Part shown: one piece after another, positions 5,919 through 39,373 of the stretch | Layout: every line of letters begins with the position of its first letter | Numbering within the stretch: position 1 is the stretch's first letter | From: an uncultured bacterium | Lineage (GTDB): Bacteria > Actinomycetota > Thermoleophilia > Solirubrobacterales > 70-9 | DNA: 64,000 bases | Reading direction: 5' to 3' | NCBI GenBank assembly: GCA_965652565.1 | Contig: CBFGWL010000003.1 | Span: forward strand, 22,457 to 86,456 | Program-made: the position numbers and the translations under genes | The notes under the pieces: generated by a model | The model's input: only the letters and a program-made list of their open reading frames with translations | Databases searched by the model: none | Told to the model about the DNA's origin: nothing

Positions 5919-6004
5919 GCGCCCTGCGGCGCGCGGGCGCGTTGGACTAGTCTGCCGCCGATGTCGATCGCAGCCATGAGCCGGGGGGAACGCGCGGAGC
6001 GGCG

Positions 6005-7475: not shown

Positions 7476-7479
7476 TTTC

Positions 7480-7509: not shown

Positions 7510-7516
7510 AACCGGC

Positions 7517-10114
<2,598 letters not shown>

Positions 10115-14553: not shown

Positions 14554-14628
14554 GGGCTTGGCCGGGCCGCTCGCGCGGTGCAAGATAGGCTGCGACCGAA
14601 TGGCGGACCTGTCGACGGAGGAGGGACC

Positions 14629-16760: not shown

Positions 16761-16763
16761 GCC

Positions 16764-18065: not shown

Positions 18066-18131
18066 CCGCGCTCCTTCCAACAGTCGTCCACCCGCGTTTC
18101 AACACCCTCCTGGTGAGGAATCTCACCACTG

Positions 18132-18470
18132 ATGAGTAATGGGGTCACCGCAAGCGTCCGCCGCGTTCGCTTTCCCACCGCGCTCACGTTGCTGGGCACG
18201 ATCCTGATAGCCGTTGGGGCCGGGCTGCTCGCGGCAGAGCTCTCGACCGTCCAGGCGCAGGAGATCGTCGCCGGCGCGGGCAGCGCCGACACCGCGCCGT
18301 TCAACCAGGGCGCCGCCGGCGCCCAACTGCCAACCGCCGCCGTGGCCGGTGACACGGGTGACTCGACCGGCCTTCTGCCGTTCACCGGCGCCGTCGCGAT
18401 CCCGATGATCGTCGTCGGGTTGATCGCCGTGGCGAGCGGCTTCCTGCTGCGGCGACGAGCCGAACGCTGA
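18132..18470 (+). CDS. very small LPXTG-type sortase-substrate-like protein
   Basis: N-terminal TM/signal segment, a roughly 45-aa Ala/Gly-rich mature part, then LPFTG, a hydrophobic helix and an RRRAER tail. Confidence 0.6.
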   Translation: MSNGVTASVRRVRFPTALTLLGTILIAVGAGLLAAELSTVQAQEIVAGAGSADTAPFNQGAAGAQLPTAAVAGDTGDSTGLLPFTGAVAIPMIVVGLIAVASGFLLRRRAER

Positions 18471-18482
18471 ACGAGCCGACGG

Positions 18483-20645: not shown

Positions 20646-21075
20646 TCAGCCGGAGAGCGCCGCGGAAGACGCGCCGCGGACCCTGACACGCGAGGACATC
20701 CGCGCGTACCCGTCCGGCTCCCCGGAGCGCGCCACGCTCGAGTGGTGGCGGGATCTGCAGTTCCAGAACGCGGGCGGCGCGCACGCGCGCTACGTCGAGG
20801 ACGCTGCACCGCCGCTCGAGGACCTGAATCGTCAGATCTCGATCGCCGCCTCCTCCTTCGTCGGGATCCCGGAGATCGTGGACACCTCCAAGGAGGACGG
20901 GCTCGCGACCGTGTACCTGCAGATCAGCCCGCCGGGCAGCTCGGCGCCGCCGCGCACCCTGAGCGTGAACCTGGCGAAGGAGGACGGCAACTGGCTGATT
21001 CGCGACAACCTGCTGGTCGAGCAGGCGGTGAACCGCGTCGCGCGCATCCGCGCCCAGCAGGAGTCGGGCGACTAG
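20563..21075 (+). CDS. lipoprotein
   Basis: AAAGGAG SD (20551..20557), then MRTTTLAGAAALVLTATALLGCGGGG with lipobox LLGC. Confidence 0.7.
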   Translation: MRTTTLAGAAALVLTATALLGCGGGGDDQPESAAEDAPRTLTREDIRAYPSGSPERATLEWWRDLQFQNAGGAHARYVEDAAPPLEDLNRQISIAASSFVGIPEIVDTSKEDGLATVYLQISPPGSSAPPRTLSVNLAKEDGNWLIRDNLLVEQAVNRVARIRAQQESGD

Positions 21076-21093: not shown

Positions 21094-21384
21094 TCAGCGC
21101 GTGCGCGCGAAGCGCTCGACCGCCGCGATCAGCTCGTCGACCTTCTCGTCGGCCTCCTCGCCGCCGCGCTGGATCGCGCCGCGAACGCAGTGGTCCGTGT
21201 GCTCGGCGAGGAGCTTGAGTGCGACGCCGTCGAGCGCGCGCGAGATCGCCCCGATCTGCGTCAGCACGTCGATGCAGTACGCGTCCTCCTCGACCATCCG
21301 CGTCACGCCACGGACCTGGCCTTCGATCCGGGCGAGCCTGCGGAGCACGGCCTCGCGCTCCTCGCTGTATCCGGGATGATCCAT
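21094..21384 (-). CDS. csoR: CsoR/RcnR-family metal-sensing repressor
   Basis: 96 aa. [21 protein letters not shown] and HTDHC give a C-H-C ligand pattern like Cu(I)-sensing CsoR. Confidence 0.85.
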
Positions 21385-21393: not shown

Positions 21394-21411
21394 TATACCG
21401 GGCGGGGGTAT
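21394..21411. promoter_or_regulatory. candidate CsoR operator
   Basis: TATACC-GGGCGGG-GGTAT has a 5-bp inverted repeat around a G-rich spacer. It resembles published CsoR boxes of the ATACCCC..GGGGTAT type. It lies 10 nt from the csoR start and 24 nt from the purC start. Confidence 0.5.
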
Positions 21412-21434
21412 CCCGTCTGTACCATCGGCAGGCC

Positions 21435-22292
21435 TTGACGACCTCCCTTGCAGATCTGCGCCTGCTGTCCAGCGGCAAGGTCCGCGAGATGTACCAGCTC
21501 GAGGACGACCTGCTGATGGTCGCCTCGGATCGCATCTCCGCGTACGACGTCGTCCTGCCCACGCCGATCCCGGACAAGGGCCGCGTGCTGACGCAGATGT
21601 CGGTGTTCTGGTTCGAGACGACCGGCCACATCTGCCCCAACCATCTGATCTCCCAGGAGGTGCCCGAGGAGGTGCGCGGGCGCGCCCTGCGCGTGCGCAA
21701 GCTCGACATGTATCCCGTCGAGTGCGTGGTCCGCGGCTATCTCTCGGGATCGGGCTGGAAGGAGTACCGCGCGTCGCAGTCCGTCTGCGGCATCGAGCTG
21801 CCGGCCGGGCTGCGCGAGTCGGACAGGCTGCCCGAGCCGATCTTCACGCCCGCGACCAAGGCCGAGGAGGGCGAGCACGACGAGAACGTCGACTTCGAGC
21901 GGGCCGTCCAGATCGTCGGGGACCGCGGCCTGATGGAGCGCCTGCGCGACATCTCGATCGCGCTGTACACGCACGCCGCCGAGCACGCCGCGGAGCGGGG
22001 GATCATCATCGCCGACACCAAGTTCGAGTTCGGCGCCGCCGCCGACGCGGAGATCGTGCTCGCCGACGAGGTGCTTACGCCCGACTCCTCGCGGTTCTGG
22101 CCGGCCGACGCGTACGAGCCGGGGCGCGGGCAGTCGTCCTTCGACAAGCAGTACGTGCGCGACTGGCTCGACGAGTCGGGCTGGGACCACAACCCGCCGG
22201 GGCCCGAGCTCCCCGCGGAGGTCGTCGCGAACACGCGGACGAAGTACGTCGAGGCCTACGAGCGCATCACCGGCCGTTCGCTCGACGGTTGA
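21435..22292 (+). CDS. purC: SAICAR synthase
   Basis: TTG start in frame. GKVREMY...[14 protein letters not shown]...DTKFEFG. The ORF-track start at 21219 runs antisense through csoR and is not used. Confidence 0.93.
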
Positions 22293-22308
22293 GTCGCGCT
22301 CGCCGGGG

Positions 22309-23421
22309 ATGGCGATGCGACTCGTCATGACGCTGCGGGTCCGCGACGAAGCGGACATCTTCGAGGAGAACCTGCGCTTCCATCGCGCCCAGGGAGTCGA
22401 CCGCTTCGTCGCGCTCGACAACGGCTCGGTCGGCTCCATCCGCGACATCCTCGACCGCTGGAGCGACGCCGGCCTGCTGGAGCGCATCTCCAGGCCCGCT
22501 GGTGAGAGCTCGCGCAGGCGCGCGGAGTGGGTCACCCTGATGGCGCGGCGGGCGGCCACCCACCACGCCGCCGATTGGGTCATCAACAACGACGCGGACG
22601 AGTTCTGGTGGCCCCTGCGTGGATCGCTGCGCGACGTGTTCGCCGCGATCCCCGAGCGCTACGCCGCGCTGAGCGCCCCGCGCACGGAGTTCGTCCCGCG
22701 CGCGGGCGAGGAGCCCTGGCCTGAGCGCCTGATCTACCGCGAGCGCCTCTCCAGCACGCTCCCGAAGCGCGCCCACCGCGCCCATCCGGAGGTCCTCGCG
22801 AACCCGCACATGGCCCGCATCCCGGGCGCCGGCGCGCCGTCGCACCGCGGGCGGGCCTGGCTGCGCACGAAGGCGACTCGGCAGCGCCCCAGCGACGTGC
22901 CCGCGCCGGTGCCGCGCTGGCCGGTGCGGGTCCTGCACTTCCCCGTGCGTTCGCTCGAGCAGTTCCGTGCCCGCGTGGAGCGGGCCCAAGCGGCCGGCCG
23001 CCACAGCGGCGTGGCGCGCGCCGGCGAGCTCTACGCGTCACTCGCGGAGGGGACGCTGGAGCGCCGCTACGCCGAGGTCGCCTACGACGACGAAGCGATC
23101 GCGGCGGGCGTGCGCGCCGGCGAGCTCGTTGAGGACTCTCGCCTGCGCGACTTTCTGCGCGTGTGCCCCGGGCTCGACGGGCCGGCTGAGTGGACGCCGC
23201 CCCCGGGTCTCGATCCCGAGCCGGGCGAGGAGACGGAGCTCGCCGACGACGGCCTCGCCGCGCTGCTGCGCGGCGAGCAGCTCGCGGAGGGCCGCCTGCG
23301 CACCGCCAGGCGGCGCCTGCGCCGCCTGGAGCGCGAGCTCGAGCGCGCCCGCGAGACCGACGACACGAACCTCCGCCGGCGCGTTGCGCGCCGGCTGCGG
23401 ACCCGGCGGGATTCACGGTGA
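22309..23421 (+). CDS. GT2-like glycosyltransferase (paralog 2 of 3)
   Basis: MRLVMTLRVRDEADIFEENLRFHRAQGVDRFVALDNGS, NNDADEFWWP and VLHFPVRSLEQFRARV, with an Arg-rich coiled tail. Starts 16 nt after purC. Confidence 0.7.
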   Translation: MAMRLVMTLRVRDEADIFEENLRFHRAQGVDRFVALDNGSVGSIRDILDRWSDAGLLERISRPAGESSRRRAEWVTLMARRAATHHAADWVINNDADEFWWPLRGSLRDVFAAIPERYAALSAPRTEFVPRAGEEPWPERLIYRERLSSTLPKRAHRAHPEVLANPHMARIPGAGAPSHRGRAWLRTKATRQRPSDVPAPVPRWPVRVLHFPVRSLEQFRARVERAQAAGRHSGVARAGELYASLAEGTLERRYAEVAYDDEAIAAGVRAGELVEDSRLRDFLRVCPGLDGPAEWTPPPGLDPEPGEETELADDGLAALLRGEQLAEGRLRTARRRLRRLERELERARETDDTNLRRRVARRLRTRRDSR

Positions 23422-24452
23422 GCCGCAACGTCTTCATCCAGGGAATGCGGCGATCGGGGACGACGATCCTCTACGACGCGTTCTGCGAGGACCCCGAGCT
23501 GCGCTGCTTCTACGAGCCGTTTCGCGAGGAGAACGTGACGCCCGGCGGGGGCAGCGGCGCCCGCGACGGCGATCTGTTCGCGGAGACCCGCAAGCTGCGT
23601 CGCGAGTTCCAACGCACGCAGCACCCGGAGATCCCGCTCGAGCTGTTCAACCACGGCGGGCCCCGGGCACCGGCCCTTGAGCTGCACGAGACGCTGCCGG
23701 CCTGGGGACTCGACTGGATGCGTTTTCTGCTCGACCAGGCGCCGGCGGTGCTCATCAAGCACGTCCGCATGTACCGCAAGATCGGCGTCCTCCACCAGCT
23801 CGATCCCGAGGCCGTGCTCGTGCATCTGGTGCGCGACCCGCGCGCCGTCAGCGCCTCGATGCTCCTGGGCCGCGGGCGCCGGCACCTGTGGCGCTACCCC
23901 GACGCCGACGCCTTCTTCAGCAGCTGGTCGCGGCGCAAGCTGTGGTCGAGCCGCGCCCTCTCCGACGCGCTCATCGCCGAGGGTGCCTACCCAGCGCTGC
24001 AGCACGGCGCCCCGGACTTCATGCGTCCGCTCATCGTCTGGCAGGCGGCCTTCAGCGCGACATACGAGGCGGGCCGCCGGCTCTTCGGGGAGCGCTACGT
24101 GCTCGTACGGCTCGACGATCTGCGCGTCGATCCCGCCGGGACCCTGGCGCGGATCTACGAGCGGCTGGAGCGCCCGGTGCCCGCTGCCGTGGCCGCGTGG
24201 GCAGAGGACAACGTGCGGCGCGACGCCGACATCCCGTTCGGCGACGACCCGCGTTGGGCGGATGCCGCCGAGCTGCTCGAGATGGGCGACGCGCTCGCCG
24301 CCGCGGGCTACGCGGACGCGTTCCCGGCGCCGAGCGGACGGCCCCTCGCGCTGGACCCGCCCGACCACGGCGCGCCGTCGCGTCTCGGCGGCGTGCTGGC
24401 CCGGGCGCGCGCCGGGTTGGACCGGGCGCGGGGGCGGCGTCGTTCTCGCTAG
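23418..24452 (+). CDS. divergent sulfotransferase-fold protein
   Basis: The GTG start overlaps the upstream TGA (GTGA). VFIQGMRRSGTTIL (5'-PSB-like) and HLVRDPRAVSAS (3'-PB-like). Confidence 0.65.
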   Translation: MSRNVFIQGMRRSGTTILYDAFCEDPELRCFYEPFREENVTPGGGSGARDGDLFAETRKLRREFQRTQHPEIPLELFNHGGPRAPALELHETLPAWGLDWMRFLLDQAPAVLIKHVRMYRKIGVLHQLDPEAVLVHLVRDPRAVSASMLLGRGRRHLWRYPDADAFFSSWSRRKLWSSRALSDALIAEGAYPALQHGAPDFMRPLIVWQAAFSATYEAGRRLFGERYVLVRLDDLRVDPAGTLARIYERLERPVPAAVAAWAEDNVRRDADIPFGDDPRWADAAELLEMGDALAAAGYADAFPAPSGRPLALDPPDHGAPSRLGGVLARARAGLDRARGRRRSR

Positions 24453-24477
24453 CCGGGCGCGTCGCTACTTTTGTGCT

Positions 24478-24708
24478 GTGAAAGCGCGCGTTCTGATTCG
24501 TCCGAAGGAAGGCATCCTCGACCCGCAGGGCAAGGCGGTCGAACGGGCGCTCCCGGCGCTTGGGTTCAGCGGGGTGAGCCACGTGCGGGTGGGGCGCCTG
24601 GTGGAGCTCGAGGCCGAGGATGCGTCGCGGCTCGACGAGCTCTGCGAGAAGCTGCTCGCCAATCCGCTCATCGAGGACTACGAGATCGTCGAGCTCCAGG
24701 AGGCCTAG
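24478..24708 (+). CDS. purS: FGAM synthase PurS subunit
   Basis: 76 aa. KARVLIRPKEGILDPQGKAVERAL...NPLIEDYEI. Confidence 0.9.
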   Translation: MKARVLIRPKEGILDPQGKAVERALPALGFSGVSHVRVGRLVELEAEDASRLDELCEKLLANPLIEDYEIVELQEA

Positions 24709-24712
24709 CGAC

Positions 24713-25399
24713 GTGGCTGCGCGCTTCGGGGTGATCCAGTTCCCAGGCTCCTGCGACGAGCGCGACGCGCTCGCGGCCTGCGAGCGCGCCGGCGAGGCGC
24801 GGCTCGTGTGGCATGAGGAGCGGGACCTGAGCGACATCGACGTGGTCGTGGTCCCCGGCGGCTTCTCCTACGGCGACTATCTGCGCGCGGGCGCCATCGC
24901 CCGCTTCGCTCCGGCAATGGAGGCGGTCGCCCGGTTCGCCGCTGAAGGCGGCCCGGTGCTGGGGATCTGCAACGGCTTCCAGGTGCTCTGTGAGGCGGGC
25001 CTTCTGCCGGGAGCGCTCCTGCCCAACGAGAACCTGCGCTTCATCTGCCGTCAGGTAGACCTCGAGGTCGCCTCAACGGACTCGGCGTTCACGTCGGCCC
25101 TCCAGGAGGGCGAGCTGCTCTCGGTCCCCGTCAAGCACATGAGCGGGCGCTACTACGCCCCGGACGAGATCCTCGATGAGCTCGAGGCCAACGGGCAGGT
25201 CGTCCTGCGCTACGCGCCCGGGCAGAACCCCAACGGCTCGGTCCGCGACATCGCCGGCGTGCGCAACGCCGCCGGCAACGTGATGGGCCTCATGCCCCAC
25301 CCCGAGCACGCGGTCGACGAGCTCACCGGCTCCGCCGACGGCCTGCGCCTCTTCGCCTCGGCGGCCGCCAGCCTGCGGGCCGTCCATGCGGCTGCCTGA
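24713..25399 (+). CDS. purQ: FGAM synthase glutaminase subunit PurQ
   Basis: GTG start 4 nt after purS. FGVIQFPGSCDERD, catalytic GICNGFQ and MPHPE. Confidence 0.93.
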   Translation: MAARFGVIQFPGSCDERDALAACERAGEARLVWHEERDLSDIDVVVVPGGFSYGDYLRAGAIARFAPAMEAVARFAAEGGPVLGICNGFQVLCEAGLLPGALLPNENLRFICRQVDLEVASTDSAFTSALQEGELLSVPVKHMSGRYYAPDEILDELEANGQVVLRYAPGQNPNGSVRDIAGVRNAAGNVMGLMPHPEHAVDELTGSADGLRLFASAAASLRAVHAAA

Positions 25400-26300
25400 T
25401 CCGCTCTTTCGCCTGCGCGCGCGTCGGGAGGCCGGCCCGCCGGCGCCGTTCGTGGTCGGCGTGGGCCGCTCCGGGACCACGCTCCTGCGGCTGATGCTCG
25501 ACGCGCACCCCCAGCTCGTCATCCCGCCCGAGACGCACTTCTTGCCGGAGCTGATCGACGCGGCGCGGCGCCGGGCCGGCGCCGAGGAGCTTGCCCGGAT
25601 CGCGGCGGCGAGCCGCCACTGGGGCGACCTCGGGATCACGGCCGCGGACTTCGAGGCGCGCCTGCGCCTCGGTGGAACGCAGCCCGACCGCGCCGCGCGC
25701 GCCTTCTACGAGCTCTACGCCGAGCGCCACGACAAGCCCCGTTGGGGCGACAAGACCCCGGGCTACGTCAAGCGCATGGCGATCATCGGGCGCGCGCTGC
25801 CGGAGGCGAGGTTCGTACACCTGATCCGCGACGGCCGCGACGTGGCGCTCTCGCGGCGGCGGCGCGGGATGGGCGCCGAGCGGCCGATGGCCGAGACCGC
25901 GGCGAAGTGGCGCGACCGCATCCTCGCCGCGCGGCGCCAGGCGCGCCGGCTGCGGGGGCGGTACCTGGAGCTGCGCTATGAGGACCTCGTCGCCGAGCCC
26001 GAGCCCATCCTGCGGCGCATCTGCGAGTTCATCGAGCTGCCCTACGAGCCCGCGATGCTCGCCTACCACCGCACCGCGCGCGAGCGCCTGGCCGAGATGA
26101 ACCGCGACCTGCCGCCCGTCGGCAAGCGGGGCTCGCGCGACGCGGCCGAGCGGATGGCGGCGCACGCGCTCGCGGCCGAACCGCCCCGTCCGGACCGCGT
26201 CAGCGCCTGGCGCAGCGAGATGACCCCCGCCGACGTCGCCGCCTTCGAGGGCGCGGCGGGTAGCCTGCTCGCGGAGCTCGGCTACGACGTGGCATCCTGA
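25386..26300 (+). CDS. PAPS-type sulfotransferase (array member 1)
   Basis: PFVVGVGRSGTTLLRLMLDAHPQLVIPPETHF, RWGDKTPGY, LPEARFVHLIRDGRDVALS and LLAELGY. The ATG overlaps the purQ 3' end by 14 nt. Confidence 0.85.
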   Translation: MRLPDPLFRLRARREAGPPAPFVVGVGRSGTTLLRLMLDAHPQLVIPPETHFLPELIDAARRRAGAEELARIAAASRHWGDLGITAADFEARLRLGGTQPDRAARAFYELYAERHDKPRWGDKTPGYVKRMAIIGRALPEARFVHLIRDGRDVALSRRRRGMGAERPMAETAAKWRDRILAARRQARRLRGRYLELRYEDLVAEPEPILRRICEFIELPYEPAMLAYHRTARERLAEMNRDLPPVGKRGSRDAAERMAAHALAAEPPRPDRVSAWRSEMTPADVAAFEGAAGSLLAELGYDVAS

Positions 26301-26328
26301 GCTCCGCGCGTGACACGCATCTCGAGCC

Positions 26329-27285
26329 ATGGGAAAAGTCCGCTACAGCTTTCGCTATCTGCGTAACCGCCGGCTGCGGGGCCGGGCCGAGCCGGAGTTC
26401 CCGGCGCCCTTCGTCGTCGGCGTCGGCCGCTCCGGCACGACGCTCCTGCGGCTGATCCTCGACGCGCACCCGGAGCTGGCGATCCCGCCGGAGACGCACT
26501 TCATGCCGCAGCTCATCATGCGCTCGGGCCAGCCCTGGTTCCCGCCCCAGCGCGTCGTGAAGCTGATCGTCGAGGACGAACACCGCCGCTGGGCCGACTT
26601 CGGGCTCGACGAGGAGCAGCTGCTCGAGCGGTTCCGCGCGCTGGAGCCGTTCAACCTCCCCGACGCGCTGCGCGAGTTCTACCGCGCCTACGCCGAAAAG
26701 CACGGCAAGCCGCGCTGGGGCGACAAGACGCCCGAGTACGTGCGCCGCATGCGCAGGATCAAGCGCACGCTGCCCGAGGCCCACTTCATTCACGTGATCC
26801 GCGACGGCAGGGACGTGACGCTCTCCACGAACAAGCGCATCGAGCAGCGCGGGCACCGCCAGCCGATCAAGGCGGCGCCGGCCGCGCGCCGCTGGCGCAG
26901 CCGGATCGAGAAGGCGCGAACCGACGGACCGGTGCTGGGCGACTACCTCGAGATCCGCTACGAGGACCTCGTCACGGACACCGAGCCAACGGTGCGCCGC
27001 GTCTGCGAGTTCATCGGCCTCGACTTCGACCCCGAGATGCTGCGCTATCACGAGCGCGCCGAGGAGCGCCTGCGCGAGATGGCCGGGGCGATGCCGGCCC
27101 GCGCCGGCCGTCCGCCGCGCGAGGCGGGCGAGCGCCTGCGCGCGCACAGGATGGCTACCAAGCCGCCGAGCAAGGAGCGCATCGCGCGGTGGCGCGAGGA
27201 GATGGATCCCGAGTACCGCGCCGAGTTCGAGGAGTACGCAGGCGATCTCCTGCAAGAACTCGGATATGACGTCGGCTCCGACTGA
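26329..27285 (+). CDS. PAPS-type sulfotransferase (array member 2)
   Basis: PFVVGVGRSGTTLLRLILDAHPELAIPPETHF, RWGDKTPEY, HFIHVIRDGRDVTLS and LLQELGY. Confidence 0.85.
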   Translation: MGKVRYSFRYLRNRRLRGRAEPEFPAPFVVGVGRSGTTLLRLILDAHPELAIPPETHFMPQLIMRSGQPWFPPQRVVKLIVEDEHRRWADFGLDEEQLLERFRALEPFNLPDALREFYRAYAEKHGKPRWGDKTPEYVRRMRRIKRTLPEAHFIHVIRDGRDVTLSTNKRIEQRGHRQPIKAAPAARRWRSRIEKARTDGPVLGDYLEIRYEDLVTDTEPTVRRVCEFIGLDFDPEMLRYHERAEERLREMAGAMPARAGRPPREAGERLRAHRMATKPPSKERIARWREEMDPEYRAEFEEYAGDLLQELGYDVGSD

Positions 27286-28171
27286 GCGCTCGCCGGCCCC
27301 GTTCGTCGTCGGGTTCGGCCGCTCCGGCACGACGCTCCTGCGGCTGATGCTGGACGCCCACCCAGCGCTCGCCGTCCCGCCCGAGACCGCGTTCCTGCCG
27401 CGGCTGATCCGCGCCTGCCTCGCTGGCGCGAGCCCGGCGGAGGCGCTCGCCCTGCTGCGCGAGCAGCCGCGCTGGGGCGACCTCGGGCTGGACGAGGACG
27501 AGGTGCTCGCGCGCTTCGGAGACGCGCCGCGACTCGACGCGGGACACGCAGCGCGCACGATCTACTCGCTCTACGCGGAGCGCCAGGGCAAGCCCCGCTG
27601 GGGCGACAAGACCCCCAGCTACTTCCGTCGCATGAAGCTCATCGAGGACGCACTGCCCGAAGCGCGGTTCGTGCACGTGATCCGCGACGGCCGCGACGCG
27701 GCCCTCTCGTTCCGGCGCGTCCCGCAGCATATGCGCGCGCGTCCCACGGAGACGATCGCCGAGGAGGCGGCGCGCTGGGCCCGCACGATCCGCAAGGCCC
27801 GCCGCCAGGGCCGGCGCGTGCGGCACTACCTGGAGGTGCGCTTCGAGGAGCTCGTCCGCGACCCCGAGGCGGCGCTGCGGCGCGTCTGCGAGTTCTGCGA
27901 GCTCGATTTCGCGCCCGAGATGCTGAACTACCACGAGCGCTCCGCCGAGCGCCTGCGCGAGATCGAGCGCCCGATGACGCTCGCGACGGGCCGGCGCGTC
28001 GACCCCGCTGACAGGGTGCGGATCTTCGGCCTCACCTCGGAGCCGCCGCGCGCGGAGCGGCTCGAGGTCTGGCGCAGGGAGATGTCGCCGGAGGACCAGG
28101 TCGCGTTCGAGCGCGAGGCGGGCAAGGTCCTGGCGCGGCTCGGCTACCCGCTCGCGGGCGAAGGGCCCTAA
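27266..28171 (+). CDS. PAPS-type sulfotransferase (array member 3)
   Basis: PFVVGFGRSGTTLLRLMLDAHPALAVPPETAF, RWGDKTPSY and RFVHVIRDGRDAALS. Overlaps member 2 by 20 nt. Confidence 0.85.
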   Translation: MTSAPTERSPAPFVVGFGRSGTTLLRLMLDAHPALAVPPETAFLPRLIRACLAGASPAEALALLREQPRWGDLGLDEDEVLARFGDAPRLDAGHAARTIYSLYAERQGKPRWGDKTPSYFRRMKLIEDALPEARFVHVIRDGRDAALSFRRVPQHMRARPTETIAEEAARWARTIRKARRQGRRVRHYLEVRFEELVRDPEAALRRVCEFCELDFAPEMLNYHERSAERLREIERPMTLATGRRVDPADRVRIFGLTSEPPRAERLEVWRREMSPEDQVAFEREAGKVLARLGYPLAGEGP

Positions 28172-28264
28172 GCCGACGCTGCCGCGGCGCGTCTGCCACC
28201 ATAAGCGGCGTCCGCGGCGGCCCCGGCATCGCTCGCCGCCCGCCCTCTACCCTCCTTTTCCTCT

Positions 28265-29203
28265 ATGGCTTCGATTCTTTCGAGACTGATCAGGCGCGAG
28301 CCCGACCGGCCCCCGTTCCCGTTCATCGTCGGCATGAACCGCTCCGGCACCACGCTGCTGCGGATGATGCTCGACGCGCACCCCGAGCTCACGATCCCGC
28401 CGGAGACACACTTCGTCCCGGCGCTGATCAAGGCGTGCCGCGAGCCCGACTGCACGCCCGAGAGCGCGCTCGAGGCGATGAAGTCGGCGCGCGAGTGGGG
28501 TGACTTCGACTTCAGCGACGAGGAGATGCTCGGCCGCCTGCGCGCGCTGCCCAAGCTGCGCCCCGGCCCGGCCGTGCGGACGTTCTACGAGGCGTACGCC
28601 GAGCGCCAGGGCAAGCCGCGCTACGGCGAGAAGACGCCCACCTACGTGCAGAAGATGAAGCTGATCCAGCGGGCGCTGCCCGAGGCCCGCTTCGTGCACG
28701 TCATCCGCGACGGCCGCGACGTCGCCCTCTCCGTGCTCGACCGCACGGTGCGCGACCTGACCGCCGCCGACGTGGCCCACCGCTGGCGCAAGAAGATCCG
28801 CAAGGCGCAGGAGGACGCGCCGGCTCTCCGCCACTACATGGAGGTCCGCTACGAGGACCTGATCCTGGACACCGAGCCCGTCCTGCGGCGCGTCTGCGAG
28901 TTCCTCGAGCTGGACTGGAGCAACGACGTCCTCCACTACCACGAGCGCTCGCCCGAGCGGCTCAAGGAGATGGCCCGCGCGCTGCCGGGCGGCGAGCGCG
29001 CCAAGGAGCTCTCGGTCGAGCGCCGGATGGCGACGCACGCGATGACGACCAAGCCGCCGAGCAAGGATCGCGTGCAGCGCTGGCGCCGCCAGATGACCGA
29101 GGAGCAGCGCCGGCAGTTCGAGGAGGTCGCCGGGGATCTGCTCGCGGAGCTCGGCTACCCCACGGACGAGGCGGTCGACGCCGTCTCCGACGCCCAGTCG
29201 TAG
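28265..29203 (+). CDS. PAPS-type sulfotransferase (array member 4)
   Basis: FPFIVGMNRSGTTLLRMMLDAHPELTIPPETHF, RYGEKTPTY, RFVHVIRDGRDVALS and LLAELGY. No SD is visible upstream. Confidence 0.8.
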   Translation: MASILSRLIRREPDRPPFPFIVGMNRSGTTLLRMMLDAHPELTIPPETHFVPALIKACREPDCTPESALEAMKSAREWGDFDFSDEEMLGRLRALPKLRPGPAVRTFYEAYAERQGKPRYGEKTPTYVQKMKLIQRALPEARFVHVIRDGRDVALSVLDRTVRDLTAADVAHRWRKKIRKAQEDAPALRHYMEVRYEDLILDTEPVLRRVCEFLELDWSNDVLHYHERSPERLKEMARALPGGERAKELSVERRMATHAMTTKPPSKDRVQRWRRQMTEEQRRQFEEVAGDLLAELGYPTDEAVDAVSDAQS

Positions 29204-29264
29204 CGGCCTTGCGCGCGATCGCGGCCGGACGCCCGGCGCGCCCGAGGCTCGCAGGAGCACACGC

Positions 29265-30347
29265 ATGAGGGTCGGCATCGTCACCAAGTGGTTCGCCAGC
29301 GGCCAGGCCGTCGTCTCGCGCTTCATCCGCTCCGCGCTCGACGAGCTCGGGCACGAGACGTTCGTGCTGGCGCGCGAGGGCACGGGCCCGCGCTCGGGCG
29401 TCACCGACCGCCCGCACGACCCCATCTGGGACCAGCCGGGCGTCACGCAGACCGGCGAGAGCGAAGTCCCCTACGCGACGTTCGAGCGCTGGGTGGACGA
29501 GCACGGGCTGGACGTCGTGATGACGGACAACCTGTACCAGTTCGAGGAGCTGCGCAGGCTGCGTGAGCGCGGGGTGCGAACCGTCGGCCGCTTCGTGTGG
29601 GAGCACTTCGCGGAGGAGCACGTGCCCGGCGCGAAGGAGGCGCTCGACGTCGTCTACTCGCTGCACCGCGCCGAGCAGGCCCGCTACGCGGAGTTCGGCA
29701 TCGAGAGCCCCTACGTGACCTGGGGATGTCACCCCGAGCTCGTCGGGGTCGAGCCGGCCCCACGCACCGACGACGCGATCACCCTGCTTCTGCCGGGTAG
29801 CTTCATGGGCCGGCGCAAGCCGCTCGCGGAGGTGCTGGAGGCGTTCTCGCGCACACGCGACGAGCGGCTGCGGCTGATCGTCAAGGGCCAGACGAGCAAG
29901 CGCCAGGGCAAGCTCGAGAAGGCCGCGGCAGCCGATCCCCGGATCCAGATCCGGATCGCCGATGAGCCCACGGCCGACCATCTGCGCTTCGTCGCGGGCT
30001 GCGACGTGTGCCTGGCGCCGACCCGCTGGGAGGGCCTCGGGCTCCCCCTCTACGAGGCGATCGCGTTCGGCCAGCCGGTGATCACCAACGACAACCCGCC
30101 GATGAACGAGGCGATCCTCGACGGCGTGAACGGCCTGCTGGTCGGGGCGAGCCAGGAGGGCACCGCGCGCTCGGGCATCCCGTCGTGGAGCCCCCACGTC
30201 GACGAGCTCGCCGCCGCCATCGAACGGATCGCCGACGACGATCTGCGAAGCCGGCTCGCGGCGGGCGCCCGCGAGCTGCGCGACGGCGAGCGCTCATGGG
30301 CGCGCACCGTGCAGGGCCTGCGCGAGCTGCTCGAGGACCTGGCGTGA
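29265..30347 (+). CDS. GT1/GT4-type glycosyltransferase (paralog 2 of 3)
   Basis: AGGAGC SD. MRVGIVTKWFASGQAVVSRFIRSALDELGHETFVLAR, IWDQPGVT and the EX7E motif in RWEGLGLPLYEA. Confidence 0.82.
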   Translation: MRVGIVTKWFASGQAVVSRFIRSALDELGHETFVLAREGTGPRSGVTDRPHDPIWDQPGVTQTGESEVPYATFERWVDEHGLDVVMTDNLYQFEELRRLRERGVRTVGRFVWEHFAEEHVPGAKEALDVVYSLHRAEQARYAEFGIESPYVTWGCHPELVGVEPAPRTDDAITLLLPGSFMGRRKPLAEVLEAFSRTRDERLRLIVKGQTSKRQGKLEKAAAADPRIQIRIADEPTADHLRFVAGCDVCLAPTRWEGLGLPLYEAIAFGQPVITNDNPPMNEAILDGVNGLLVGASQEGTARSGIPSWSPHVDELAAAIERIADDDLRSRLAAGARELRDGERSWARTVQGLRELLEDLA

Positions 30348-31204
30348 GCGAGCGGGCGCCGGCACCGTTCATCGTCGGCGTCATGCGGTCGGGAACGACC
30401 CTGCTGCGCCTCATGCTCGACGCCCACCCCGAGCTCGCGATCCCGCCGGAGACGCACTTCGTGCCGAAGCTGATCAAGCGCGTGAGCAAGGGCACGAGCG
30501 ACGCCGACGGCGTGCTCGAGGTGATCACGTCCGGCTCGCGCTGGCCCGACTTCCACCTCGACGCCGAGACCCTGCGCGCGCGTTTGCGCGAGCGGGAGCC
30601 GCTCGACGCCGGGACCGCCTTGCGCGTCTTCTACGAGGCCTACGCGGAGCGCTTCGGCAAGGAGCGCTGGGGCGACAAGACCCCGGGCTACGGCAAACGC
30701 CTGCTGCGCATCACGAAGGCGCTGCCCGAGGCTCGCTTCATCCACATCATCCGCGACGGCCGGGACGTGGCCGTGTCCAGGCGCCGCCGCGCCACCGATC
30801 CTGCCCCGGTCGCCAAGCACGCCAAGCGCTGGCAGGCGCGCATCAAGTCCACTCGCCGGCGCGCACAGCGCGTCGACCACTACCTCGAGGAGCGCTACGA
30901 GGCACTCGTGCTCGACCCCGAGCCCGTGCTGCGGCGCGTGTGCGAGTTCATCGAGCTGGAATACGACCCGGTGATGCTGCGCTACCACGAACGCGCCGAG
31001 GAGCGCCTGCGCGAGATCGCGAACCCCTTCGAGAAGATGTCGGCGGAGCGGCGCCTGGAGGCGCACCGGCTGGCCGCGGAGCCTCCGCAGCGCGGCCGGA
31101 TCGGCACGTGGCGGGAGGCGATGAGCCCCGAAGAGGTCGCCGAATTCGAGGCGGCCGCGGGCGCGATGCTCGACGAGCTGGGCTACGAGCGGGCGGGCGC
31201 ATGA
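30344..31204 (+). CDS. PAPS-type sulfotransferase (array member 5)
   Basis: The GTG start overlaps the upstream TGA (GTGA). PFIVGVMRSGTTLLRLMLDAHPELAIPPETHF, RWGDKTPGY and RFIHIIRDGRDVAVS. Confidence 0.85.
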   Translation: MSERAPAPFIVGVMRSGTTLLRLMLDAHPELAIPPETHFVPKLIKRVSKGTSDADGVLEVITSGSRWPDFHLDAETLRARLREREPLDAGTALRVFYEAYAERFGKERWGDKTPGYGKRLLRITKALPEARFIHIIRDGRDVAVSRRRRATDPAPVAKHAKRWQARIKSTRRRAQRVDHYLEERYEALVLDPEPVLRRVCEFIELEYDPVMLRYHERAEERLREIANPFEKMSAERRLEAHRLAAEPPQRGRIGTWREAMSPEEVAEFEAAAGAMLDELGYERAGA

Positions 31205-32295
31205 GGGTCGGCGTCGTCACCAAGTGGTTCAACCGCGGCCAGCCGGTGGTCGGCCGTCACACGCGCTCGGCCCTGGACGCGCTCGGCCACGAGACGTTCG
31301 TGCTCGCGCGCCCGAAGAAGGAGCGAGGCCCGATGCCGGGCGCCCTCGCGCGCGACGGGGTGTGGGACCAGCCGGGCGTCACCGAGGCCTCCGCCTACGA
31401 CATCCCGCTCGCCGAGTACGTCAACTGGGTCGACCGCAACGGGATCGAAGCGATCTTCTGCGACCAGAACTACCAGTTCGACGAGCTCGCGAAGCTGCGC
31501 AACCGCGGCGTGCTGGTCATCGGCCGCTTCGTGTGGGAGCACTTCACCGCGGAGCACATCGAGGGCACCCGCCGCGCGTACGACCTCGTCTTCTCGATGA
31601 CGCGCGCCGAGCAGGAGCGCTACCGCGGCATGGGCCTGGACACGCCCTACGTGCCGTGGGGCTGCCACCCCGAGCTCGTCGCCGTGGGCGACGAGGTGCG
31701 CCGCGAGCCGGGCGAGACCGTGACGTTCGTCTTCCCCGGCGGCTTTTTGGGGCATCGGAAGCCGCTTGAGCCCGTGCTCGAGGCCTGGGCGCGCGTGCGC
31801 AGCCCGCGGGCGCGCCTGCTCGTCAAGGCGCAGGTGGAGCGCCGTCTGGAGGCCGCCGAGCGCGCGGCCGCCGCCGACGACCGGATCTCGCTGCGCATCG
31901 GCGACGAGCCCACGCCCGAGCATTTGCGCGCGGTCGCCGCCTGCGACGTGACCGTCTCGCCCGCGCGCTGGGAGGGGCTCGGCCTGCCGCTGTACGAGGC
32001 GGTGGCCTTCGGGCAGCCCGCGATCACCAACGCGACGCCGCCGATGGACGAGATCACGCTGCATGAGCGCAACGGCCTGCTCATCCCATCGCACCCGGAT
32101 GGCACGGCGCGCTCGGGCATCACCGCGCACGCCTTCGACGTGGACGCGATGGCGGCCGCGATCGAGCGCTTGGCCGAGGACGACGAGCTGCGCGAGCGGC
32201 TCGCGCAGGGCGCTCGCGAGCTGCGTGAAGGCGAGCGCGCGTGGCAGCGCACCGTCGATGGCTTCGCCTCGCTGCTAGAAATGGCCGCCGCATGA
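31201..32295 (+). CDS. GT1/GT4-type glycosyltransferase (paralog 3 of 3)
   Basis: The ATG overlaps the upstream TGA (ATGA). MRVGVVTKWFNRGQPVVGRHTRSALDALGHETFVLARP, VWDQPGVT and RWEGLGLPLYEA. Confidence 0.82.
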   Translation: MRVGVVTKWFNRGQPVVGRHTRSALDALGHETFVLARPKKERGPMPGALARDGVWDQPGVTEASAYDIPLAEYVNWVDRNGIEAIFCDQNYQFDELAKLRNRGVLVIGRFVWEHFTAEHIEGTRRAYDLVFSMTRAEQERYRGMGLDTPYVPWGCHPELVAVGDEVRREPGETVTFVFPGGFLGHRKPLEPVLEAWARVRSPRARLLVKAQVERRLEAAERAAAADDRISLRIGDEPTPEHLRAVAACDVTVSPARWEGLGLPLYEAVAFGQPAITNATPPMDEITLHERNGLLIPSHPDGTARSGITAHAFDVDAMAAAIERLAEDDELRERLAQGARELREGERAWQRTVDGFASLLEMAAA

Positions 32296-32335
32296 TCGAT
32301 TCTCCGTCACAGCGCCACGCCGCCCGGAGGCTCCC

Positions 32336-33268
32336 GTGAACTACGCCAAGCGCGCGCGGATCATCCTGGCGCGGCGCCGCCTGCGCGGCCAGACCCCGCC
32401 GCCCGGCCCGGCACCGTTCGTCTGCGGCGTGACGCGCTCGGGCACGACGCTGTTGCGGCTCATGCTGGACGCGCATCCCGACCTGGCCATCCCCGGCGAG
32501 ACGCACTGGGTGCCCAAGTTCATCAAGCGCCTCGAGAAGCGCAAGATGACCGCCGACGAGATGGCCGACTTCATCATCGAGAGCAAGCGCTGGCCGGACT
32601 TCCACCTCGACCCGGACGCCCTCCGGCAGCGCTTTCGCAGCCTCAAGCATCTGAACGCGGCCGACGCGATCCGTGCCTTCTACGGCCTCTACTCCGAGCG
32701 CGAGGGCAAGACCCGCTACGGGGACAAGACGCCCGGATACGTCCGCGAGATGCTGCGCCTGCAGCGGGTGCTGCCCGAGGCGCGCTTCATCCACATCATC
32801 CGCGATGGGCGCGACGTCGCCCTCTCGCATCTGCGCATGAACTGGGGCCCGGAGAGCTACGAGGAGTCGGCGCAGCTGTGGGTCGAGCGGATCACCACCG
32901 CCCGCCGGCAGGCGCCGAAGGTACGGCATTACACGGAGGTCAAGTTCGAGGACCTCGTGCGCGACACAGAGGGCGTACTGCGCAAGGTCTGCGACTTCAT
33001 CGAGCTCGACTACGACCCCTGCATGCTCGACTACCACGAGCGCGCCGAGCAGCGGCTGCGCGAGAAGGCCCGGGACCTCCCCCGGCGCAACCGCCCGGTG
33101 CAGACGGCGGAGGCGCGCATGGAGTCCCACCGGCTCGCCAAGGAGCCGCCGCGCGAGGACCGGCTCGGCATGTGGCGCCAGCGGATGAGCCCGGACGAGA
33201 TCGCAAGCTACGAGGCGATCGCGGGCCCCCTGCTCACCGAGCTCGGCTACGAGCTCGGCTCGAAGTAG
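32336..33268 (+). CDS. PAPS-type sulfotransferase (array member 6)
   Basis: GGAGG SD with a GTG start. PFVCGVTRSGTTLLRLMLDAHPDLAIPGETHW, RYGDKTPGY, RFIHIIRDGRDVALS and LLTELGY. Confidence 0.85.
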   Translation: MNYAKRARIILARRRLRGQTPPPGPAPFVCGVTRSGTTLLRLMLDAHPDLAIPGETHWVPKFIKRLEKRKMTADEMADFIIESKRWPDFHLDPDALRQRFRSLKHLNAADAIRAFYGLYSEREGKTRYGDKTPGYVREMLRLQRVLPEARFIHIIRDGRDVALSHLRMNWGPESYEESAQLWVERITTARRQAPKVRHYTEVKFEDLVRDTEGVLRKVCDFIELDYDPCMLDYHERAEQRLREKARDLPRRNRPVQTAEARMESHRLAKEPPREDRLGMWRQRMSPDEIASYEAIAGPLLTELGYELGSK

Positions 33269-33317
33269 CAAGCGCCCAAGCCGCAGCTGCCCCGGCCGAT
33301 TCTCGCCCCCGGCACTG

Positions 33318-33347
33318 TTGACGGCCGGGGTTGCGATCGGTTAGGAA
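33318..33347 (+). promoter_or_regulatory. candidate promoter for the RTX-like gene pair (TTGACG-18 nt-TAGGAA)
   Basis: Hexamers read by eye. It lies downstream of a 9-bp stem hairpin (CCCCGGCCG...CGGCCGGGG) that ends the sulfotransferase array. Confidence 0.35.
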
Positions 33348-33377: not shown

Positions 33378-34052
33378 ATGAGAAAGCGCGTGCTGGGCGC
33401 TGCCGCTCTGGCAGCGTGCTTTGCCTTGACCAGCGCCGCCACCGCGGCGGTGATCAAGGGGAGCAAGGACGACGAGGTGCTCGGGGGCACCCACAAGGCC
33501 GACCGGATCCAGGGCCGGGGCGGCCACGATCTGATCGGCGGGAACAACGGCAACGACCGGATCTCAGGGGGCGGCGGGAACGATCGCCTCTACGGCGGGC
33601 GAGGCAACGACGTCGTGCGAGGCGGACCCGGCGTCGACTTCTTGTTCGAAGGGGATCCGCTCGGCGGCGCCTGGATCACCCGCGCGCACACCCCACCCGC
33701 GCGCGGCATCGCCCATCACGACCTGCCGGGCAACGACAAGCTCTTCGGGGGCGGCGGGGCCGATTCCATCTACGGCTCGAAGGGCCGCGACCGCATCGAG
33801 GGACAAGGAGGCCATGACTTCCTGCAAGGCGGCCCCGGTGCGGACCTGATCAGGGGCGGCGCCGGTGAGGACACCATCTACGGCGACGCCGGGAAGGACA
33901 GGCTGTTCGGTGGCGCAGGCGACGACTACCTGAACGCCGTCGATGGCGCGCCGGGCGACAAGGTGGACTGCGGACCCGGCGACGACGAGGCCCAGGTCGA
34001 CCCCGGTGACGACGTGGCGGGCAACTGCGAAACGGTCTCGACCCCGGCCTGA
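33378..34052 (+). CDS. secreted RTX-like calcium-binding repeat protein
   Basis: Signal peptide, then GGxGxD nonapeptide runs (GGNNGNDRISGGGGNDRLYGGRGNDVVRGGPGVD) and a C-terminal CGPGDDEAQVD...GNCETV. Confidence 0.8.
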   Translation: MRKRVLGAAALAACFALTSAATAAVIKGSKDDEVLGGTHKADRIQGRGGHDLIGGNNGNDRISGGGGNDRLYGGRGNDVVRGGPGVDFLFEGDPLGGAWITRAHTPPARGIAHHDLPGNDKLFGGGGADSIYGSKGRDRIEGQGGHDFLQGGPGADLIRGGAGEDTIYGDAGKDRLFGGAGDDYLNAVDGAPGDKVDCGPGDDEAQVDPGDDVAGNCETVSTPA

Positions 34053-34069: not shown

Positions 34070-34771
34070 ATGAGGACACGCTTCAAGATCGCCGCGTTCG
34101 CCGCGTCGGTGACCCTGCTGAGCGCCACCTGCGCGCTCGCCGCGCAGATCCAGGGAACCAACCGCAACGAGATCCTCGGCGGCACGAAGAAGGCCGACGT
34201 GATCAAGGGCAAGGGCGGCAACGATCTGATCGGCGGGAACGGCGGCAACGACCGGATCGCCGGCAACGGCGGCCACGACACGCTGTACGGCATGAAGGGC
34301 AACGACACGGTTCACGGCGGGCCCGGCCAAGACGAACTGAACGAGGGCGTCGTGCTCGGCCTGCTCAACCGCGAGGCCGCGCCAGCTCCCGGGGCGGAGC
34401 GGAACCCCGCCCACCGCGGCATCGCGTTCGACCTGCCCGGCAACGACAAGCTGTACGGCGGAGGCGGGGGCGACGTGATCTACGCATCCGCGGGGCGCGA
34501 TCTCGTCGACGGCGGGCCCGGGTCGGACTACTACCTGCACGGCGGCCCCGGCAACGACCGGGTCCTGGGCAAGGGCGGTCATGACCAGCTCGATGGCGGC
34601 CCCGGCCGGGACGTGATCAACGGCGGCCCGGGCGACGACACGATCTACGCCGTCGACGATGAGCGCGACGAGATCATTTGCGGCCCCGGCGACGACGAGG
34701 CCGTGGTCGACGCCCAGGACGAGGTCGCCCCGGACTGCGAGACCGTGCACATCGGCGCCATCCCGTTTTAG
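34070..34771 (+). CDS. secreted RTX-like calcium-binding repeat protein (tandem paralog)
   Basis: Same architecture as the previous gene: GGNGGNDRIAGNGGHDTLYGMKGND... and CGPGDDEAVVD...PDCETV. Confidence 0.8.
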   Translation: MRTRFKIAAFAASVTLLSATCALAAQIQGTNRNEILGGTKKADVIKGKGGNDLIGGNGGNDRIAGNGGHDTLYGMKGNDTVHGGPGQDELNEGVVLGLLNREAAPAPGAERNPAHRGIAFDLPGNDKLYGGGGGDVIYASAGRDLVDGGPGSDYYLHGGPGNDRVLGKGGHDQLDGGPGRDVINGGPGDDTIYAVDDERDEIICGPGDDEAVVDAQDEVAPDCETVHIGAIPF

Positions 34772-34856
34772 GCACCGGAGGGTCGAGTCCGCTCGCCGTC
34801 CACGCGCCCGATCGCCGTGAGCCCTGCCCAACGGGCTTCAATAAGCTCGTGGGCCA

Positions 34857-39242: not shown

Positions 39243-39373
39243 GGACGCTATGCGCGGGTGCGCGTTGAGCCCGCGCGCGCCCGGTAACCTCGGCCGCCCG
39301 CGATCGAAGTGCGATTGGCCGAGTGGATCATGGTCGTCGACGATCTGGCGCGGTCACGGGTAGGTCCCCACAG

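Follow-up and report, generated by a model that had tools for sequence, protein, structure and literature searches.

We analyzed a 64,000-nt stretch of DNA (the window, labeled WIN in our comparisons; CBFGWL010000003.1 positions 22,457-86,456, forward strand, assembly GCA_965652565.1) in which purine-biosynthesis (pur) genes are interleaved with sulfotransferase (ST) and glycosyltransferase (GT) genes, hereafter called the cargo. Because the GC content of the window is 72%, genes were called by a frame plot of GC content at third codon positions (GC3), and they were annotated with Pfam. A PurQ scan of species-representative genomes placed the window in Solirubrobacterales (Thermoleophilia, Actinomycetota), with best matches no more than 80% identical. 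The original prediction, made from the DNA of this locus, had described purC, a GT2-like gene, an ST gene, purS, purQ, four ST genes and then GT, ST, GT and ST genes as one co-directional unit at 21435-33268. The GC3 plot and Pfam confirmed this gene order, and the junction lengths given there matched ours exactly. They are backed by independent metagenome gene calls: three independent metagenome contigs encode an identical PurQ, and their gene calls give the same starts as the window. The genes from purC to purL are the following.

21435-22292, + strand: purC (SAICAR synthetase; Pfam PF01259 SAICAR_synt, 9.5e-79; TTG start)
22309-23421, + strand: GT2-like gene (only residues 12-104 match Glyco_tranf_2_4, 4e-13; GT92-like N-terminal region)
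23418-24452, + strand: ST0, a divergent sulfotransferase (Pfam Sulfotransfer_3, 7e-20)
24478-24708, + strand: purS (by translation; PF02700 on the identical metagenome gene in the L002 and L003 gene calls; GTG start)
24713-25399, + strand: purQ (GATase_5, 1.7e-37; AGGAGG precedes the start)
25386-26300, + strand: ST1 (Sulfotransfer_3)
26329-27285, + strand: ST2 (Sulfotransfer_3)
27266-28171, + strand: ST3 (Sulfotransfer_3)
28265-29203, + strand: ST4 (Sulfotransfer_3; the most conserved sulfotransferase of the set)
29265-30347, + strand: GT4a (Pfam GT4)
30344-31204, + strand: ST5 (Sulfotransfer_3)
31201-32295, + strand: GT4b (Pfam GT4)
32336-33268, + strand: ST6 (Sulfotransfer_3)
33378-34052, + strand: RTXa (HemolysinCabind, 6e-33 / 2e-30 for the pair; signal peptide)
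34070-34771, + strand: RTXb (HemolysinCabind, as for RTXa; signal peptide)
34857-37085, + strand: purL (FGAR-AT linker, AIRS and AIRS_C domains; GTG start)

The junctions from purC to ST1 comprise 16 nt, a GTGA overlap (-4), 25 nt, 4 nt and a 14-nt overlap (25386-25399), and those from ST1 to ST6 measure 28, -20, 93, 61, -4, -4 and 40 nt. The Sulfotransfer_3 E-values of ST1-ST6 range from 1e-36 to 2e-41. A 2-kb module of two genes has been duplicated in tandem to give GT4a-ST5 and GT4b-ST6 (71-82% DNA identity, repeat spacing 1936-2049 nt); in most relatives the order is GT4a-GT4b-ST6, with ST5 lacking. The GT2-like gene at 22309-23421, whose C-terminal ~260 amino acids have no family assignment, is 43-48% identical to two window paralogues, at 6005 and 38439(-), and is not present in the purC-purS slot of any relative examined.

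The extent originally proposed holds in part: the genes in 21435-33268 are as described, but the feature is larger, with further ST, GT4 and GT2 genes at other pur junctions between 6005 and 40108. In total, the window contains 9-10 ST-like genes (seven close ST paralogues and two to three divergent ones), three GT4 genes and three GT2-like (GT2_4) genes. Five to six junctions of one housekeeping cluster are thus filled by three families (ST, GT4 and GT2-like), which independent random insertion does not predict. Co-directionality is a regional property, with only four of about 40 genes at 245-44522 on the minus strand, and is therefore weak evidence for a single operon.

Conservation and history of the cargo

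Gene content of relatives was taken from tblastn maps of fetched loci and from gene calls supplied with the metagenome collection (L-numbers denote the related loci and genomes compared). L011, L012, L017 and L042 were found via the PurQ scan, L084, L085 and L086 were reached through ST4 orthologues, and L087, L088 and L089 through ST0 orthologues. The tblastn maps revealed an uninterrupted clpB-GYD-purD-purE-purB-purC-purS-purQ-purL-purF-recQ backbone in about 40 Solirubrobacterales/Thermoleophilia genomes. The view of the ST and GT genes as cargo added to an ancestrally contiguous purC-purS-purQ-purL is supported by this synteny comparison: far from being absent from all relatives, the insertion-free order is present in most of them.

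Among the 11 cargo genomes (the window, L011, L012, L017, L042 and L084-L089), all carry ST0 between purC and purS, and nine have an ST/GT4 block between purQ and purL; in L042, the cargo downstream of purQ is present in rearranged form, and L088 has ST0 only, with a DUF2277 gene between purQ and purL. The core order purC-ST0-purS-purQ-ST1-ST2-ST4-GT4a-GT4b-ST6-...-purL was found in L011, L012, L017, L084, L085, L086, L087 and L089, with small differences in the presence of ST1/ST2 and GT4a. L087, a genus-level relative of the window with Pur proteins 83-91% identical, shares its gene order minus the GT2-like gene, ST3, the PMT-like gene described below and the RTX pair, and keeps the TTG start of purC. 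The purQ/ST1 overlap is conserved as well, being 14 nt and identical in L087 and 4 nt in L085 and L086. ST4 orthologues in the same slot are 76-89% identical (L087, L011, L017, L084-L086 and L089), and the lineage is common: in public metagenomes, ST4 orthologues at 75% identity or above form over 120 clusters (clustered at 90% identity).

A neighbor-joining tree of PurC+PurS+PurQ (100 bootstraps) placed all cargo-bearing genomes inside one 23-genome clade with 99/100 bootstrap support. Monophyly of the cargo-bearing genomes inside this clade was recovered in only 1 of 100 bootstraps, and a single gain followed by two losses therefore stays a tentative account. We favor the reading that the cargo was present in the ancestor of the 23-genome clade and was later lost in some lines, for which the tree is too weak to serve as proof.

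Several properties indicate that the cargo is old, vertically inherited and compositionally native. The cargo GC content (0.72-0.74) and GC3 (0.93-0.96) equal those of the flanks and host, and cargo proteins of the window and L087 are 71-91% identical, about as conserved as the Pur proteins. Close ST paralogues are only 47-58% identical to one another, below the identity of ST4 orthologues, so the duplications predate the species. By Pfam, the cargo region contains no mobility gene, integrase or transposase, and there are no flanking repeats other than paralogous coding repeats. A recently acquired island or mobile cargo was rejected given the native GC and GC3, the lack of mobility genes, the same slots clade-wide and the host-like divergence. 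The term "accessory," used in the original prediction, is accordingly misleading for genes of this age.

Minus-strand genes interrupt the arrangement in some relatives. Four genomes each have, between ST6 and purL, a gene for ~400-440 amino acids that matches no Pfam family; the window, L087 and L012 have no such gene. The positions are the following.

L011, ~17457-18791, - strand: ST6/purL minus-strand gene
L017, 12144-13403, - strand: ST6/purL minus-strand gene
L085, 14178-15368, - strand: ST6/purL minus-strand gene
L086, 15331-16572, - strand: ST6/purL minus-strand gene

In genomes with such a gene, an independent purL promoter is therefore forced. In L089, a minus-strand gene separates purQ from the STs. 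In L012, ST6 overlaps the purL start, and purL itself appears as two adjacent tblastn segments in different frames (16571-18735), suggesting either a frameshift or an error in the assembly. Beyond the main cargo clade, GT4 and ST0-like genes lie directly upstream of purC in L022 (6764-9663; purB-GT4-ST-purC), and a minus-strand ST lies between purE and purB in L013 (5005-5850), so the association of STs with pur clusters also occurs in other layouts.

Predicted promoters and transcription units

Promoters in this study are predictions from a 6-nt motif, TANNNT. In Mycobacterium smegmatis, TANNNT located 6-13 nt upstream of the transcription start site is the preferred SigA -10 element, and ~24% of mRNAs are leaderless (PMC6448022). 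The motif has a background of 0.00042 per position in the window and was found 6-11 nt upstream of six of 43 start codons (clpB, csoR, purC, purS, ST4 and purL), compared to ~0.1 expected. The elements relevant to the pur and cargo genes are the following.

21420-21425, + strand: predicted purC -10 hexamer TACCAT, 9 nt before the TTG start codon (mRNA with a very short leader or none)
24466-24471, + strand: predicted purS -10 hexamer TACTTT, in the 25-nt ST0-purS spacer, 6 nt upstream of the GTG start
28172-28264, + strand: 93-nt ST3-ST4 spacer, with a GC-rich hairpin (28172-28227), an L087-conserved block GTCTGYCACCATA (28191-28203) and TACCCT (28248-28253)
28248-28253, + strand: predicted ST4 -10 hexamer TACCCT, 11 nt upstream of ST4 in the 93-nt spacer
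34842-34847, + strand: predicted purL -10 hexamer TAAGCT, 9 nt upstream of the GTG start

Upstream of purC, TANNNT is present 6-12 nt from the start in 45 of 47 Thermoleophilia loci, mostly as TAGCAT. The distribution of the purS hexamer is different: it is present in all 11 ST0-bearing genomes but in only two of 42 ST0-free genomes (Fisher p = 1e-9). One of the two exceptions, L009, has an unrelated minus-strand insert in the purC-purS slot; no ST0 remnant was found in this gap, which by sequence reading seems to hold an unrelated minus-strand open reading frame (ORF). The other, L007, lies inside the cargo clade, and its hexamer may be a scar of cargo loss. The purL hexamer takes the form TAACCT 7 nt upstream in L087 and TAGGCT 9 nt upstream in L088, and is absent in cargo-free genomes. 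An alignment of the ST6-purL spacer, too diverged to define the RTX insertion point, revealed the TAAGCT/TAACCT pair upstream of purL. The hexamer was found at none of 11 purQ genes and, among the controls, at none of 14 GYD genes, one of 25 purD genes and none of 17 purF genes. No TANNNT was found upstream of ST1 in the window or L087. ST6 has its own -10 hexamer in four of nine genomes, and ST0 in eight of 11, those without it being the window, L087 and L012.

These elements resemble the leaderless SigA promoters of M. smegmatis and M. tuberculosis in having TANNNT 6-11 nt from the start codon and no Shine-Dalgarno sequence (PMC6448022). They differ in that the Thermoleophilia promoters are predicted only, and in that purC uses TTG in the window genome. 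In the 93-nt ST3-ST4 spacer, whose length in relatives ranges from -1 to 161 nt, the predicted hexamer and hairpin make the spacer a candidate internal promoter and/or attenuator. A motif shared by purC and ST4, GTCTG(N)ACCAT, was not enriched upstream of these genes and was dropped.

Terminators were not evident. The original prediction had placed the first convincing hairpin plus promoter only after 33268, but GC-rich hairpins of similar size without a U-tail occupy the gaps of 93 nt (28172-28227) and 61 nt (29203-29252) as well as following ST6 (core 33289-33331). None of the three folds better than shuffled sequence (z -0.3 to -1.1), and they were not called terminators. A terminator scan gave seven weak hits, mostly within coding sequence and not above shuffles in number, and a consensus promoter scan, which is uninformative at 72% GC, detected no sigma-70 promoter. 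An Rfam scan of the whole window detected a tRNA and a thiamine pyrophosphate (TPP) riboswitch only; in the vicinity of the pur genes there was no riboswitch of the purine, ZTP or any other class.

The proposal of one 11.8-kb unit is thus probably incorrect, given the conserved predicted -10 hexamers at purS, purL and probably ST4. Independent start sites and terminators at the pur/ST junctions would both speak against such a unit; starts are predicted at purS and purL, but no terminators were found. From the hexamers and the junctions we infer which promoters are active and which genes are co-transcribed: since the purC/GT2 and purQ/ST1 junctions are short or overlapping and no promoter signal is seen in them, transcription of the cargo most likely starts at the purC and purS promoters.

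Encoded enzymes and candidate explanations

ST1-ST6 score 124-143 bits and ST0 72.7 bits against Sulfotransfer_3 (cut-off 27). All nine STs in the alignment retain RSGT, the core of the 5'-phosphosulfate loop, as well as the 3'-phosphate motif RD...S, with R28, G30, T31 and R148, D149, S156 (ST1 numbering) invariant, and these residues align to the 5'-phosphosulfate-binding (5'-PSB) and 3'-phosphate-binding (3'-PB) motifs of the OLS ST structure 4gox. The close paralogues keep RSGTT, PPETH, DKTP and RDGRDxALS. For ST1, the nearest solved structures are CurM/OLS ST and the tyrosylprotein sulfotransferases TPST1/2, at E-values of only 1e-15 to 5e-17. For ST0, an AlphaFold (AF2) model (pLDDT 90) gave 44 PDB fold matches at E<=1e-3, all of them sulfotransferases, including TPST, mycobacterial Stf9/Stf1, OLS ST, HS 3-OST and cytosolic SULTs, although TM-scores are only ~0.45 and identity 10-20%. 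We infer from these motifs that the STs are sulfotransferases dependent on 3'-phosphoadenosine-5'-phosphosulfate (PAPS). As no transmembrane segment is predicted in any ST or GT, both groups of enzymes are predicted to be soluble and cytoplasmic.

The window STs share RSGTT, PPE(T)H, RDxRDxxxS and, for the ST0 model, the fold with Sulfotransfer_3 enzymes such as human and tick TPST, CurM/OLS ST, rhizobial NoeE and mycobacterial Stf1/Stf9, but identity to those of known structure is low, so that acceptor specificity is not transferable. NCBIfam offered no equivalog for any cargo protein, only sub-threshold NoeE (43 bits versus a 500-bit cut-off) and generic GT4 hits. An anti-phage defense role, raised by GT4-conflict Pfam hits, was rejected: eight proteins gave no PADLOC match, and the generic GT4 hits were stronger.

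The product is most likely a multiply sulfated glycoconjugate (an oligosaccharide, glycolipid or wall glycan), because the STs are constantly associated and start/stop-overlapped with GT4 genes and because GT2-like, GT-C and epimerase genes lie nearby. The several GTs plus tailoring enzymes typical of polysaccharide clusters are present: three GT4, three GT2_4-like, an epimerase/dehydratase and the 9-10 ST-like genes. Among the Pfam-scanned ORFs of the window, the sole membrane candidates for such a cluster are a PMT_2-like GT-C protein (18483-20645) and a distant ABC exporter (46831-48702, minus strand).

We consider it probable that an old ST/GT set accreted into the pur supercluster, which would now be a chain of about four to five overlapping transcription units with a glycoconjugate as product. 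Under this explanation, cargo genes would have entered the junctions of clpB-GYD-purD-E-B-C-S-Q-L-F in one soil Solirubrobacterales clade and would sit at the 3' ends of pur units, GT2-ST0 after purC and ST1-ST2-ST3 after purS-purQ. The purC and purS promoters would drive their transcription, and their translation would in part be coupled to that of the pur genes. Behind each cargo block, the next pur gene (purS or purL) would have a leaderless-type promoter of its own, as ST4-GT4a-ST5-GT4b-ST6 probably would too. The proposed units are [purC-GT2-ST0], [purS-purQ-ST1-ST2-ST3], [ST4-GT4a-ST5-GT4b-ST6], [RTXa-RTXb] and [purL]. Dependence would be one-way, with cargo expression needing the pur promoters and pur expression being independent of the cargo. 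The ST and GT enzymes would build a multiply sulfated glycoconjugate, for which the conserved core encodes neither the acceptor nor the export route.

Several observations weigh against parts of this explanation. The documented requirement of mycobacterial leaderless translation is for ATG or GTG (PMC6448022), with which a TTG start on a leaderless or near-leaderless purC mRNA clashes. The presence of an ST0 hexamer in most cargo genomes means that ST0 may depend on the purC promoter in the window/L087 lineage alone. Since no terminators are evident, read-through between units is likely, and the stretch could behave as one long transcript. With respect to the product, the Pfam-scanned ORFs of the window include no priming phosphoglycosyl transferase, flippase/ABC exporter or polymerase, and no gene for PAPS synthesis or recycling of 3'-phosphoadenosine-5'-phosphate (PAP) turned up among them. 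The constant association of STs with GT4 genes is the one line of evidence behind a sulfated glycan, and for the relatives closest to the STs in sequence and structure (TPST and CurM/OLS ST) the substrates are protein tyrosine and acyl-ACP rather than sugars.

A single 11.8-kb operon, in which pur and sulfation/glycosylation genes are obligatorily co-expressed and sulfation capacity tracks purine supply, would account for the co-directional run with short or overlapping junctions throughout and for the lack of detected canonical terminators and sigma-70 promoters. Conservation of the arrangement over many species is compatible with selection for co-regulation, and the overlap of ST6 with purL in L012 and the unbroken purC-to-purL run in L087 also fit. 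We nevertheless regard this operon as improbable, because conserved -10 hexamers directly precede purS and purL, and do so only in genomes with cargo (apart from the two purS exceptions above), because internal promoters are predicted 6 nt before the purS start and 11 nt before that of ST4, and because minus-strand genes part ST6 from purL in L011, L017, L085 and L086 and purQ from the STs in L089. The original prediction had speculated that sulfation could be tied to purine supply, PAPS being an adenine nucleotide. This idea found no support; as noted above, the Pfam-scanned ORFs offered no PAPS-synthesis or PAP-recycling gene. In classically studied bacteria, moreover, pur genes are induced by purine scarcity. 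If the same applies here, co-transcription would raise ST levels when purines are scarce, the opposite of supply matching. Growth-linked expression of an envelope component, or neutral trapping inside an essential cluster, would be a simpler rationale.

Neutral trapping in its strict form holds that the ST and GT genes have no regulatory tie to the pur genes, use their own undetected promoters and are kept since imprecise deletion or rearrangement would harm the flanking pur genes. The purC/purS and purQ/purL junctions do hold unrelated DNA in other actinobacteria: in Streptomyces, 2-8 kb separate purC from purS, and in Mycobacterium, Nocardia and Antrihabitans the distance between purQ and purL is 2-6 kb, with no ST hits in between. 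Also in favor are the unrelated minus-strand gene in the purC/purS slot of L009, the DUF2277 gene between purQ and purL in L088 and the relatives' own hexamers for ST0 and ST6. We nonetheless regard trapping as unlikely: the same three families fill five to six junctions of one supercluster, which would not be expected from random insertion, the purQ/ST1 overlap is conserved, and the purC/GT2 and purQ/ST1 junctions offer neither room nor signal for a promoter.

It is also conceivable that the STs modify proteins (TPST-like tyrosine sulfation, for example of the adjacent RTX proteins) or a small-molecule natural product rather than a glycan. Tyrosylprotein and CurM/OLS acyl-ACP sulfotransferases match best in sequence and structure, L085, L086, L088 and L089 have a P450 gene in the purB/purC slot, and the core lacks glycan priming and export genes. 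The RTX genes, however, are absent from every relative with the ST core and their products have Sec-type signal peptides as opposed to the cytoplasmic STs, which makes them unlikely ST targets. Since the STs are always interleaved and start/stop-overlapped with GT4 genes, since GT2-like genes, a GT-C membrane protein and a sugar epimerase are found in the wider region, and since no polyketide synthase (PKS), nonribosomal peptide synthetase (NRPS) or ribosomally synthesized and post-translationally modified peptide (RiPP) genes were seen, we consider a non-glycan target very improbable.

The accretion of a glycan-sulfating gene set that we favor combines two known kinds of arrangement, a gene set of the sulfated-glycan type and an actinobacterial pur cluster that other genes have invaded. 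What is unusual is the gene-by-gene interleaving, the clade-wide conservation and the proposed tail insertion with promoter restoration. The synechan (xss) cluster of Synechocystis PCC 6803, which reportedly has dedicated export and regulatory genes, and the predicted wps-1 cluster of Actinoplanes missouriensis resemble the window in that several STs are clustered with GTs, implying a sulfated bacterial glycan. The wps-1 cluster is a dedicated one, with predicted Wzx, Wzy and Wzz and two STs (PMC13390465). Compared to both, the window cluster has no flippase, polymerase or priming transferase that we could find, and its 9-10 ST-like genes are interleaved gene by gene with pur genes. Bacterial sulfated polysaccharides have been described as essentially cyanobacterial, with one recent actinomycete proposal (PMC13390465). 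Our search of the available literature library found no paper tying sulfotransferases to purS/purQ, to Thermoleophilia or, meaningfully, to Solirubrobacter. With respect to the pur genes, M. tuberculosis has the order purC ... purS-purQ ... purL and Streptomyces purC ... purS, and in interrupted actinobacterial clusters of this kind the purC/purS and purQ/purL junctions are likewise those that accept foreign genes. The window inserts differ in being functionally coherent, mostly co-directional, start/stop-overlapped, spread over five to six junctions and conserved across a clade.

In a bolder form, which we regard as doubtful, the pur supercluster of a widespread soil Solirubrobacterales clade would be an accretion scaffold for a complete pathway with about ten STs making the first polysulfated glycoconjugate known from Thermoleophilia; its synthesis would be hard-wired by selection to the purC and purS promoters, and each insertion would have been compensated by a new leaderless promoter for the next pur gene. 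If so, the signal behind de novo purine synthesis would also set the dose of envelope sulfation. Should the product be a polysulfated glycan of the envelope or matrix, it could play a part in soil aggregation, water retention and metal binding, and its pathway would be a source of new carbohydrate sulfotransferases for biotechnology. More generally, the locus suggests how operons may absorb foreign genes: cargo is attached at the end of a housekeeping unit, and the housekeeping gene that follows the cargo has a leaderless promoter of its own, a pattern for which the purS comparison above provides the support.

The wider pur supercluster and neighboring features

The other cargo and pur genes between hspR and purF, annotated by Pfam unless stated otherwise, are the following; purD, purE and purB have the same order as in the relatives' backbone.

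6005-7294: GT2_4/GT92-like gene, between hspR (the end of dnaK-grpE-dnaJ-hspR) and clpB
11574-12653: GT4 gene, clpB/GYD junction
12843-13739, - strand: ST gene, clpB/GYD junction (Sulfotransfer_3, 140 bits)
13459-14553: ST-like ORF, clpB/GYD junction (start uncertain)
14578-14910: GYD-domain gene, directly upstream of purD
14938-16224: purD
16260-16760: purE
16764-18065: purB
18483-20645: PMT_2-like GT-C membrane protein, purB/purC junction (23.6 bits, below the 26.1-bit cut-off)
37451-38413: NAD-dependent sugar epimerase/dehydratase, purL/purF junction
38439-39242, - strand: GT2 gene, purL/purF junction
39323-40108: divergent ST-like protein, purL/purF junction (RSGTS P-loop by motif inspection)
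41457-42920: purF

The ST-like protein at 39323-40108 has no Pfam match above threshold. It carries the RSGTS P-loop and an RNPVDVTRS motif, has a 38%-identical homologue beside ST genes in L084 and looks like a very divergent sulfotransferase. The PMT_2-like protein has 720 amino acids and at least nine transmembrane segments. It is absent from L087, as is a small predicted lipoprotein encoded at 20536-21075 between purB and csoR; in L085, L086, L088 and L089, the purB/purC slot holds the P450 gene instead, which encodes a cytochrome P450 on the minus strand. The GYD gene, to which no function is assigned, precedes purD throughout Solirubrobacterales (L005-L052) and is part of the conserved backbone. 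In the hspR-clpB stretch (5394-10114), the clpB hexamer is TAAGCT, 7 nt upstream of the clpB ATG.

RTXa and RTXb are paralogous secreted RTX-repeat proteins, 59% identical, RTXa having a LAAC lipobox-like motif in addition to the Sec-type signal peptide common to the pair. They lie between ST6 and purL in the window genome only, where they probably have their own promoter and Shine-Dalgarno sequence; L005 has an RTX-like gene downstream of purL.

A csoR/RcnR-type metal-sensing repressor gene (21094-21384, - strand) is divergent from purC and 50 nt apart from it. The spacer carries back-to-back -10 hexamers, TATAGT for csoR and the purC hexamer TACCAT. It also contains the palindrome TATACCGGGCGGGGGTAT (21394-21411), which L087 shares. 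Since the palindrome overlaps where the purC -35 element would lie, a metal-responsive repressor might also affect the purC unit.

Elsewhere in the window, a tRNA gene is located at 50256-50329. The TPP riboswitch (57729-57815, - strand) lies upstream of a thiO-like/thiG pair and inside a long ORF (56516-58147), so that the true start of that gene must be downstream of the riboswitch.

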